Shown here: one piece after another, positions 13,754 through 56,932 of the stretch
Layout: each line of letters starts with the position of its first letter
How positions within the stretch are numbered: position 1 is the stretch's first letter
Assembly: GCA_965279355.1 (NCBI GenBank)
Contig: OZ257155.1
Span: 4,276,230 to 4,340,229 of the forward strand
DNA: 64,000 bases
Reading direction: 5' to 3'
DNA from: Alphaproteobacteria bacterium
GTDB lineage: Bacteria; Pseudomonadota; Alphaproteobacteria; CACIAM-22H2
Notes under the pieces: generated by a model
Databases searched by the model: none
Told to the model about the DNA's origin: nothing
What the model saw: only the letters and a program-made list of their open reading frames with translations
Translations under genes and position numbers: made by a program

Positions 13754-13805
13754 CTGGCTTTTCGCGGCTTTCTGCCGGCTGAATTTTCGCCTTCGGATTA
13801 AAACG

Positions 13806-14206
<401 letters not shown>

Positions 14207-53699: not shown

Positions 53700-55319
<1,620 letters not shown>

Positions 55320-55355: not shown

Positions 55356-55889
55356 TTATTTCTTGCGCGCGTCGGATTTGCGAAACGCATCGAGCGCCAC
55401 CACGCGGCTGCCGTCATCGGGTGACGGCGGTGCGGCGGGCGCAGTCTCAGGTTCGGATGCCGCGGGGCTTGCCGGCGCGAGAGCGTTGCTTTTGAGCGGC
55501 GTCAGCGCGGTGACCGGCGCATTCGCCGGCGGCGTGACCGAGAACTGCAGGCCGAACTGGACCGACGGGTCGACGAATGCGCTGACCGCCGCGAACGGAA
55601 CAACAAGCCGCTCCTGCTGGCCGTTGAAGCTCAGCGAAACCTTGAAACCCGTATCGCTGGCTTCCAGGCCCCAATACTGGTGCTGGATGACGATGGTCAT
55701 CTCTTCGGGATGACGCTCACGCAGATGATCGGGGATATCCACGCCGGGATAGGTAGTGCGGAACGTCAGATAGAAATGATGCTGGCCCATCAGGCCGCGT
55801 TCGGCGACGACGGCGAGCGCTCGGCGCATGACGCCGCGCAGCGCTTCTTCGGTCATCGCTTGATAATTCAATGGATCGTCCGCCACCAA
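55356..55889 (-). CDS. sspB: ClpXP adaptor SspB (alphaproteobacterial type)
   Basis: 177 aa. An SspB fold region (ALRGVMRRALAVVAERGLMGQHHFYLTFRT) is followed by a Pro/Ala-rich linker and a basic C-terminal ClpX-binding tail (LDAFRKSDARKK). TTG start with a GGAG SD. Confidence 0.85.
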   Translation of the reverse strand: MVADDPLNYQAMTEEALRGVMRRALAVVAERGLMGQHHFYLTFRTTYPGVDIPDHLRERHPEEMTIVIQHQYWGLEASDTGFKVSLSFNGQQERLVVPFAAVSAFVDPSVQFGLQFSVTPPANAPVTALTPLKSNALAPASPAASEPETAPAAPPSPDDGSRVVALDAFRKSDARKK

Positions 55890-55932
55890 CCCGCTCCGTC
55901 GCTGGTCCCCGAGAGGGGCACTATAGCCGTTT

Positions 55933-56263
55933 CAAAGAAATCAGTGGGGGGCTTCTGTTGCCCGGTGCCCCCCGAACCGCGCTACTTAGTCTGCTTTAAA
56001 TCCCGTTAGGGATTATCAAGCTGCCTTAGCAGCGAGAGCAACGTTATCGTTGGCATCTCTAGTTTGACCCGATAACGGCGGTATCATGCCGGGCGAACTT
56101 CGTACCTTTCCCCGCACGTCGATCCTGATTCGCCCCCGTAAGGCCACCGCGCTGCCTTGAAGGGCGATCGCGTGGTGGCAAATGGTGGAGGCGCCGGGCT
56201 CTGCCCCCGGGTCCGTGGCGGCTATTACGCACGCCCTTTATCGCCATAGTCGGTTTCCCGACC
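55933..56263 (-). ncRNA. ssrA: transfer-messenger RNA, circularly permuted two-piece form (acceptor piece then coding piece)
   Basis: The minus strand carries an acceptor piece ending GGACCCGGGGGCAGAGCCCGGCGCCUCCACCA (3' end at 56183). A 45-nt spacer follows. The coding piece then starts GGGGGCGAAUCAGGAUCGACGUGCGGG (from 56137). The tag ORF is GCC AAC GAU AAC GUU GCU CUC GCU GCU AAG GCA GCU UGA UAA, giving ANDNVALAAKAA** (56064-56023). A terminator hairpin lies at 55946-55973. GGGGGCG/CGCCUCC pairing gives G3:U70. Confidence 0.8.
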
Positions 56264-56268
56264 CGCAA

Positions 56269-56297
56269 AATATAGGGATTTCAGAGGGCAGTTGGAA
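56269..56297 (-). promoter_or_regulatory. sigma70-like promoter of ssrA
   Basis: On the minus strand: -35 TTCCAA (56297-56292), a 17-nt spacer, then -10 TATATT (56274-56269). The predicted transcript start is about 56263. Confidence 0.45.
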
Positions 56298-56322
56298 GGG
56301 GCGCGGCTCAAATGCCGGGCGC

Positions 56323-56352
56323 GCAAAAGAAAAAGGGCCGCATAAGCGGCCC
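56323..56352 (-). terminator. rho-independent terminator just upstream of the ssrA promoter (insulator against read-through)
   Basis: On the minus strand: stem GGGCCGC-uuau-GCGGCCC (56335-56352), followed by UUUUUCUUUUG (56334-56324). Confidence 0.4.
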
Positions 56353-56515
56353 AGAGGTTCCAACAGGGAGGCGTCAAACCGGGTCGGAGGACCCGGGGAC
56401 CGCCGGCCGAGGGAGGATGGCCGCGATCAAGTGGCAGAATACTGGACTGCCCTTAAAACATGCTTAACGGCAAAAAGGCCTGTACCGGCTGGCGGCCCCC
56501 GCTCAGAATGCGGCC

Positions 56516-56743
56516 ATGGACGCGACGACCGCATGGCTGGTGCTGGGAATCTTCTATTTCGCGCCGCTTCTGCACGTCCTGCTGTCGCCGTCGGCCGGCA
56601 GCTTCCGCGCCGCCCCGGAGAGCGGGTGCCCGATGGGGCCCAAGCTCGGCTGGCTGGTGATGGTCCTGCTGCTAGGACCGATCGGCTGGCTGATGTTCAT
56701 GACGCGCAAGACGCGTCGGCGCCAGCCCGACACTATTTCCTGA
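56516..56743 (+). CDS. small membrane protein, PLDc_N-like (cardiolipin synthase N-terminal domain family)
   Basis: 75 aa with two TM helices, the LGWLVMVLLLGPIGWLMFM motif, a basic tail and strong GC3 codon bias. There is no obvious SD. It is convergent with the DUF1192 gene. Confidence 0.5.
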   Translation: MDATTAWLVLGIFYFAPLLHVLLSPSAGSFRAAPESGCPMGPKLGWLVMVLLLGPIGWLMFMTRKTRRRQPDTIS

Positions 56744-56749
56744 AGCCAG

Positions 56750-56932
56750 CTATTTCTTGAAAAACGCCGCCGCCGCGGCGCGGTGATCCTGCTTGCCGGC
56801 GATCGTCTTTTTCGCGCGGGCGATTTCCGCTTCCAGATTGCCGATGTAGTCGTTCAGCTCGTTCACCGACCACGATGAGAGGTCGCGGGGCTTGGTCATC
56901 TGCTTGCGCGGTTCCAAGTCTTCGAAATCCAT
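56750..56932 (-). CDS. DUF1192 domain-containing protein
   Basis: 60 aa. MDFEDLEPRK...DLSSWSVNELNDYIGNLEAEIARAKKTIAGKQDHRAAAAAFFKK matches the conserved alphaproteobacterial DUF1192 pattern. Confidence 0.8.
   Translation of the reverse strand: MDFEDLEPRKQMTKPRDLSSWSVNELNDYIGNLEAEIARAKKTIAGKQDHRAAAAAFFKK

Follow-up and report, generated by a model that had tools for sequence, protein, structure and literature searches.

The minus strand of the 64-kb stretch of DNA analysed here (the window) very probably carries, at 55933..56297, a functional ssrA gene, circularly permuted as in other Alphaproteobacteria, with sspB as the next gene on the same strand. Within the alphaproteobacterial two-piece tmRNA family the window ssrA is typical: the full-length model match, the permuted order, the tRNA-like domain and the tag template are all present in its sequence. 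Its pairing with sspB is near-universal in the class and already known, and is no peculiarity of the window genome.

Identification of the permuted tmRNA gene

Across the whole window, ARAGORN calls a single permuted tmRNA, located at 55925..56275 on the minus strand; its tag is ANDNVALAAKAA, closed by two stops. The Rfam alpha_tmRNA model (RF01849) matches 55943..56301 on the same strand over the full model (positions 1-355) with 247.2 bits and an E-value of 1.3e-70, far above its gathering score of 50, and the tmRNA_permuted model (RF04321; gathering score 47) gives 145.2 bits over model positions 1-213. Both ARAGORN and reading of the sequence give the permuted order, in which the acceptor (3') piece comes first and is followed by a spacer and the coding (5') piece. 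A sequence-only reading of this DNA had proposed a permuted two-piece tmRNA on the minus strand; ARAGORN and the two Rfam models confirm that proposal.

Standard RNA-gene finders pick up the window ssrA immediately. The same reading had dismissed the Arg/Gly-rich open reading frames over the RNA gene as spurious. Both are present, one at 56059..56268 on the minus strand and the other at 56182..56760 on the plus strand, and they are mechanical artefacts of GC-rich RNA-coding sequence. The appropriate annotation is ssrA (two-piece tmRNA), with both overlying frames removed.

A degenerate or fortuitous tmRNA-like sequence without function is a vanishingly improbable explanation: we found no point in its favour, and against it stand the full-length Rfam match (247 bits, E 1.3e-70), an unbroken tag frame with the ANDN start and AA end common to its relatives, the intact acceptor stem, G3:U70 pair and CCA, and a conserved promoter.

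The RNA pieces, the acceptor stem and the tag

The acceptor piece (56183..56262, minus strand; approximately 80 nt), as delimited by the Rfam alignment and by folding, comprises a 5' hairpin, GUCGGGAAACCGAC, the 3' strand of helix 2, the T-arm, the 3' strand of the acceptor stem (CGCCUCC) and an encoded ACCA. In both the alignment and the fold the T-arm reads CCGGG/CCCGG. On reading of the sequence, CGCCUCC runs directly into ACCA, the last A of which is position 56183, so that the encoded CCA ends at the very nucleotide previously given as the 3' end of the acceptor piece. Its 5' end is predicted from Caulobacter, in which the start lies 7 nt past the -10 hexamer; transferring this geometry to the window promoter would put the start at G56262 and make the acceptor piece 80 nt long.

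The two pieces are separated by an intervening spacer of exactly 45 nt, the length originally claimed (56138..56182, minus strand), which in a free-energy fold forms a GCCACC...GGUGGC hairpin. Among related genes the spacers between the pieces range from 10 to 50 nt (n = 46, from a strict acceptor-stem search).

RF01849 and RF04321 place the coding piece at 55943..56137 on the minus strand, with a length of approximately 195-205 nt; its 3' end is undefined by sequence and could reach approximately 55934. It consists of the acceptor 5' strand GGGGGCG, the 5' strand of helix 2, the tag template and a predicted 3' pseudoknot. Starting at 56137, GGGGGCG pairs with CGCCUCC in a 7-bp stem that contains the G3:U70 pair. 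This pairing had been read from the sequence, and it is borne out by the Rfam alignment and by an unconstrained free-energy fold. In 46 related genes the acceptor stem is kept together with G3:U70, with compensatory changes at other pairs.

The tag reading frame occupies 56013..56054 on the minus strand (the coding part, 222-263 of the gene, in the ARAGORN output). It runs from the GCC resume codon at 56054 to GCU at 56019, encodes ANDNVALAAKAA, and is closed by the tandem stops UGA (56018-56016) and UAA (56015-56013); ARAGORN and reading of the sequence agree on the placement of the frame and its stops, as had been claimed. The tags of relatives start with ANDN and end in AA. The ending KAA is common to the window and four related loci (L001, L002, L014 and L015), and one further locus, L034, ends in KAAA; the usual endings are LAA and VAA. 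ClpX recognition of the E. coli tag depends in part on the residue at -3 and, by analogy, the lineage with KAA tags may therefore rely more heavily on SspB or on another protease.

Two departures from the usual tag were seen among the related loci. In a group of AT-rich alphaproteobacterial MAGs (L009, L012, L014-L017, L021-L024, L028, L033 and L042) the tags are 16-33 residues long, for example AKNMNAFGRMPANLNASNITGIKVANAA. The tag of the tmRNA at 799..1390 of L070 appears internally duplicated (ANDNVALVA-ANDNSVVAARLAA), and the 229-nt spacer ahead of sspB at that locus contains another copy of the GGCAACAGAA hairpin motif.

The ssrA promoter and proposed maturation

Upstream of the acceptor piece, sequence and conservation identify a -35-like hexamer, TTCCAA (56292..56297, minus strand), and a -10 hexamer, TATATT (56269..56274, minus strand), spaced 17 nt apart. 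TATATT is found exactly, and with constant spacing to the acceptor piece, in 43 of 63 related loci, and TT is present at -23/-22 from the -10 hexamer in 59 of the 63. The same hexamer forms columns 28-33 of the RF01849 consensus, which itself includes the promoter boxes. The mapped tmRNA promoter of Caulobacter has TTCCAT at -35, where the window has TTCCAA, and CCCTA running into the -10 hexamer; in both, the spacing is 17 nt and is followed by TA. The TTCCAA-17-TATATT promoter that had been proposed is thus backed both by its conservation across 63 loci and by the start mapped for the Caulobacter tmRNA. A scan with the E. coli promoter consensus left it unflagged because its -35 hexamer matches at just three of six positions. 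We do not count this miss against the promoter, given the support from conservation and from the Caulobacter start site.

Applying established knowledge of tmRNA to the window sequence suggests the following maturation and action. RNA polymerase would start near G56262; RNase P would cut 5' of G56137, and 3' trimming would expose the CCA at 56183, the 45-nt spacer hairpin being discarded in the course of maturation. The resulting pieces, of approximately 80 and 200 nt, would remain base-paired to each other in the acceptor stem and helix 2. Once charged by alanyl-tRNA synthetase, the tmRNA would enter stalled ribosomes with SmpB and add (A)ANDNVALAAKAA to the stalled protein, and SspB would then bind the N-terminal part of the tag and pass the protein to ClpXP. 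The window also encodes a full-length class A RNase P RNA (RF00010, 315.3 bits) at 13802..14192 on the minus strand; its enzyme is the one expected to cut the precursor at G56137.

The sspB gene

The mechanically called open reading frame downstream of ssrA starts at a TTG codon (55889..55356, minus strand). The start of sspB is most likely the GTG at 55886, giving a protein of 176 aa (55356..55886, minus strand), because a Shine-Dalgarno GGAG (55894..55897, minus strand) lies 7 nt before it, because the closest related locus shares the opening GTG-xxx-GAC-GAU, and because the conserved N-terminus begins at residue 4. This codon is 59 nt past the last tmRNA stem, 56 nt past the end of the Rfam match and 47 nt past the U tract, close to the distance of about 45 nt from the end of ssrA that had been stated.

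The identity of the product as SspB, also part of the sequence-only reading, is confirmed by profile and structure matches. Pfam PF04386 (SspB) scores 154.6 bits against a threshold of 27, aligning residues 12-164 with profile positions 2-155 of 156. The best match among solved structures is A. tumefaciens AGR_C_3712p (PDB 2NYS; E 6.4e-38), with an alignment that extends to residue 173 and includes VVALDAFRK against VVSLDAFRK; Caulobacter SspB (PDB 2QAZ/2QAS) matches over residues 4-118 with an E-value of 2e-34. The C-terminal tail of SspB binds ClpX, and in the window protein the flexible linker and the tail resemble those of its relatives.

Conservation of the ssrA-sspB pair in the Alphaproteobacteria

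With the window SspB as query and one genome taken per species, we collected 80 alphaproteobacterial sspB loci and scored an upstream tmRNA in each by ARAGORN, by Rfam and by a search for the conserved 3' motif. In 67 of the 80, a permuted ssrA immediately precedes sspB and has the same orientation. At one further locus the tmRNA is 2.5 kb upstream of sspB, and another is cut by the end of its contig; in the remaining 11, several of them from Hyphomonas, no tmRNA was found in the available upstream sequence, which spans 3 kb at ten loci and 864 nt at L073. The claim that ssrA and sspB form one compact unit is thus supported as far as adjacency is concerned. The closest locus, L001, belongs to an uncultured alphaproteobacterial MAG, and its SspB and fumarase are 62% and 85% identical to those of the window.

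For distances between the two genes we took the last conserved tmRNA stem as the 3' boundary of ssrA. The 3' ends given by ARAGORN always lie 91 nt past the first stop codon and were dropped as gene boundaries. Measured in this way, sspB starts between 23 and 378 nt past the last stem (median 72.5 nt), the window value being 59 nt. In the group of AT-rich MAGs with long tags the distance is 23-36 nt, a spacer that fits a U run and a ribosome-binding site and leaves no room for a promoter. For comparison with the Rhizobiales tmRNA loci, the spacers in the related loci sampled are mostly 56-175 nt.

The arrangement can be traced in earlier data. In Caulobacter datasets the tmRNA gene CCNA_R0049 (start 2338502, plus strand) immediately precedes sspB, CCNA_02187 (2339090-2339578, plus strand). 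In three Rhizobiales, the tmRNA is flanked by conserved gene pairs (SMc01449/SMc01450, AGR_C_3711/AGR_C_3712 and mll1468/mll1469), the right-hand neighbours being SMc01450, AGR_C_3712 and mll1469; this conserved flank was recorded without being connected to tag recognition (Ulve et al. 2007, PMC2245857). One of these neighbours, AGR_C_3712p, is the SspB homologue of PDB 2NYS that is matched by the window protein. We take CC2102 to be the older Caulobacter locus name of SspB. CC2102 was named as a signature protein of the Alphaproteobacteria in lists of 2005 and 2007. A full-text literature search for the position of ssrA relative to sspB in the Alphaproteobacteria found no statement of it, and the adjacency is documented here from supplementary tables. 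The adjacency is said to be mentioned by Lessner et al. 2007 (J Bacteriol).

Comparison with known tmRNA systems

The known system most like the window is that of Caulobacter crescentus, in which an acceptor-first permuted ssrA is likewise followed by sspB as the next gene on the same strand. Its tag is reportedly of the ANDN type, as in the window, although it ends in VAA where the window tag ends in KAA. The spacer between ssrA and sspB is approximately 200 nt in Caulobacter, as estimated from start-site coordinates and a precursor of approximately 330-370 nt, against 56-59 nt in the window. Caulobacter sspB has its own mapped 5' end (see below). The genes past sspB also differ, being a thioesterase and a peptidase in Caulobacter and a class I fumarase in the window.

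In E. coli the function is the same: tmRNA tags proteins, and SspB delivers the tagged proteins to ClpXP. Shared features include the G3:U70 alanine identity pair and tags that start with AAND and end in AA. The E. coli tmRNA, however, is a single piece, its gene adjoins smpB, and sspB lies elsewhere, in the sspA-sspB operon. In S. meliloti, smpB is unlinked to the tmRNA gene (Ulve et al. 2007, PMC2245857). The tmRNAs of S. meliloti, A. tumefaciens and M. loti consist of two pieces, as in the window; those of S. meliloti are 82 nt (acceptor) and 204 nt (coding) on Northern blots (PMC2245857). The Rhizobiales tags read ANDNYAEARLAA, unlike the window tag ANDNVALAAKAA.

The 3' end of ssrA

The gene ends with the last tmRNA stem and a U tract (55934..55973, minus strand), which together form a weak terminator-like end recognised from sequence and conservation. 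The strands GGGGGGC (55973-55967) and GCCCCCC (55952-55946) enclose a 14-nt loop, ACCGGGCAACAGAA, and are followed by ACUGA and then by UUUCUUU (55940-55934). Among 68 sequences the stem is kept through compensatory changes (for example GGAGGC/GCCUCC, GAGGGGC/GCCCCUC and GCCGGC/GCCGGC), and the loop GGYAACAGAA is near-invariant. On reading of the sequence, a CGGU upstream is able to pair with ACCG in this loop; Rfam models no pseudoknots, and such pairing can, if it forms, make the last stem a pseudoknot.

A terminator scan flagged nothing at the 3' end of ssrA, because the loop is longer than 8 nt and the U run comes 5 nt past the stem. The z-score for folding of the 121-nt 3' region was not significant (0.59); free energy alone is therefore uninformative about a terminator at this site. 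At least five U in the eight nucleotides past the last stem are present in 34 of 68 relatives, and the window has six. We conclude that the hairpin and U tract are the last stem of the tmRNA and at best a weak terminator. The sequence-only reading, in which a GC hairpin and U tract (55973-55933) end ssrA, is thus correct as to the sequence, while the terminator role it implied is weak.

Transcription of sspB

The sequence-only reading had suggested that sspB expression probably depends on read-through of the ssrA terminator or on a promoter inside ssrA. We lean slightly towards a route in which most of the sspB mRNA here is made by polymerases that initiate at the strong ssrA promoter and transcribe through the weak hairpin and U tract at the end of ssrA. 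Under read-through, the 3' end of the tmRNA would arise by partial termination or by processing, and a weak promoter straddling the 3' end of ssrA may add to the sspB mRNA. Read-through is favoured because the closest clade (L001, L002, L034 and L003-L007) has no evident stop or restart site between ssrA and sspB: the gap is 24-52 nt, one to three U are found in the eight nucleotides past the stem, and no -10-like box was found upstream of sspB in any of these loci. In the window, too, just 59 nt lie between the last stem and the sspB start, and the distant U run and 14-nt loop fail a standard terminator scan. Against read-through, the window is the sole member of its closest clade with a U run of six in eight, with which efficient termination could occur. 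In Caulobacter the coverage of the tmRNA is approximately 380 times that of sspB, and so even 1% read-through would matter.

Alternatively, ssrA and sspB could be mere neighbours, with ssrA ending at the hairpin and U tract and sspB transcribed from a weak promoter of its own that starts near 55913, a possibility to which we give somewhat less than an even chance. A scan with the alphaproteobacterial sigma-70 consensus finds a possible weak -10 box, CTATAG(T), at 55921..55926 on the minus strand (8 of 12 matches), and initiation from CTATAGT (55926-55920) would yield a 27-nt leader. The matching -35 element, CCCCAC (55949-55944, minus strand), lies inside the last tmRNA stem and is poor, and promoter matches of this 8/12 quality occur by chance 2.6 times per kb per strand. 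The six U in eight soon after the stem of the window would suit an independent sspB, but the closest relatives have neither a -10 box nor a U run. The one experimental precedent that we found, in Caulobacter, shows a separate 5' end for sspB, 26 nt ahead of the ATG. RNA-seq coverage there rises 14-fold, from 27 before to 384 after, and read-through is therefore minor in that species. Even so, this 5' end may itself be partly a processing site, because it retains a sizeable signal without TAP treatment (-TAP 166 vs 413) and has a poor promoter-motif score (p 0.084).

A further version of the read-through route, which we regard as rather unlikely, is that in Alphaproteobacteria with short spacers, the window included, sspB is promoterless and its mRNA is the read-through tail of the tmRNA precursor, freed by 3'-end cleavage. 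If so, the supply of the tag adaptor would be tied to the synthesis of the tmRNA, and leaky termination or breakdown of the tail would keep the adaptor at a far lower level. There is a parallel in the E. coli tRNA-tufB operon, where a strong stable-RNA promoter drives a protein gene and the mRNA is released by RNA processing; co-transcription has been shown for tufB, whereas for ssrA-sspB in the window it is what we infer. With spacers down to 23-36 nt, the transcription of sspB should be easily testable in cultured members, and the outcome would sharpen the picture of an established system without uncovering a new one.

Genomic neighbourhood

Directly after sspB, the window encodes a class I fumarate hydratase (53700..55319, minus strand). 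A fumarase is found in the same position in 12 related loci (L001-L008, L034, L041, L052 and L079), so that the conserved block in this clade is ssrA-sspB-fumA. On the other side of ssrA, the block comprising TrcR, a zinc-type dehydrogenase, DUF1192, a 75-aa ORF and ssrA is fully common only to the window and L001. The 75-aa ORF (56516..56743, plus strand) encodes a hydrophobic protein without a Pfam or NCBIfam match; L001 has a counterpart, 70% identical, at the corresponding position. This ORF and the DUF1192 gene (56932..56750, minus strand) converge, their stop codons being separated by 6 nt.

Just upstream of the ssrA promoter, and on the same strand, is a candidate small RNA (56328..56464, minus strand), with a corresponding site at 2392..2548 in L001. 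Both sites match the BjrC1505 model (RF02356) over its full length, scoring 36.3 bits (window) and 47.2 bits (L001), below the gathering score of 50; a scan of 20 tmRNA-linked loci, among them L001, gave no gathering-level Rfam match at this site. The candidate contains two CCUCCC motifs and ends in a clean intrinsic terminator (56352..56335), and its fold beats all 200 shuffles (z -4.19). Its core is conserved with L001, and the terminator stem differs in sequence.
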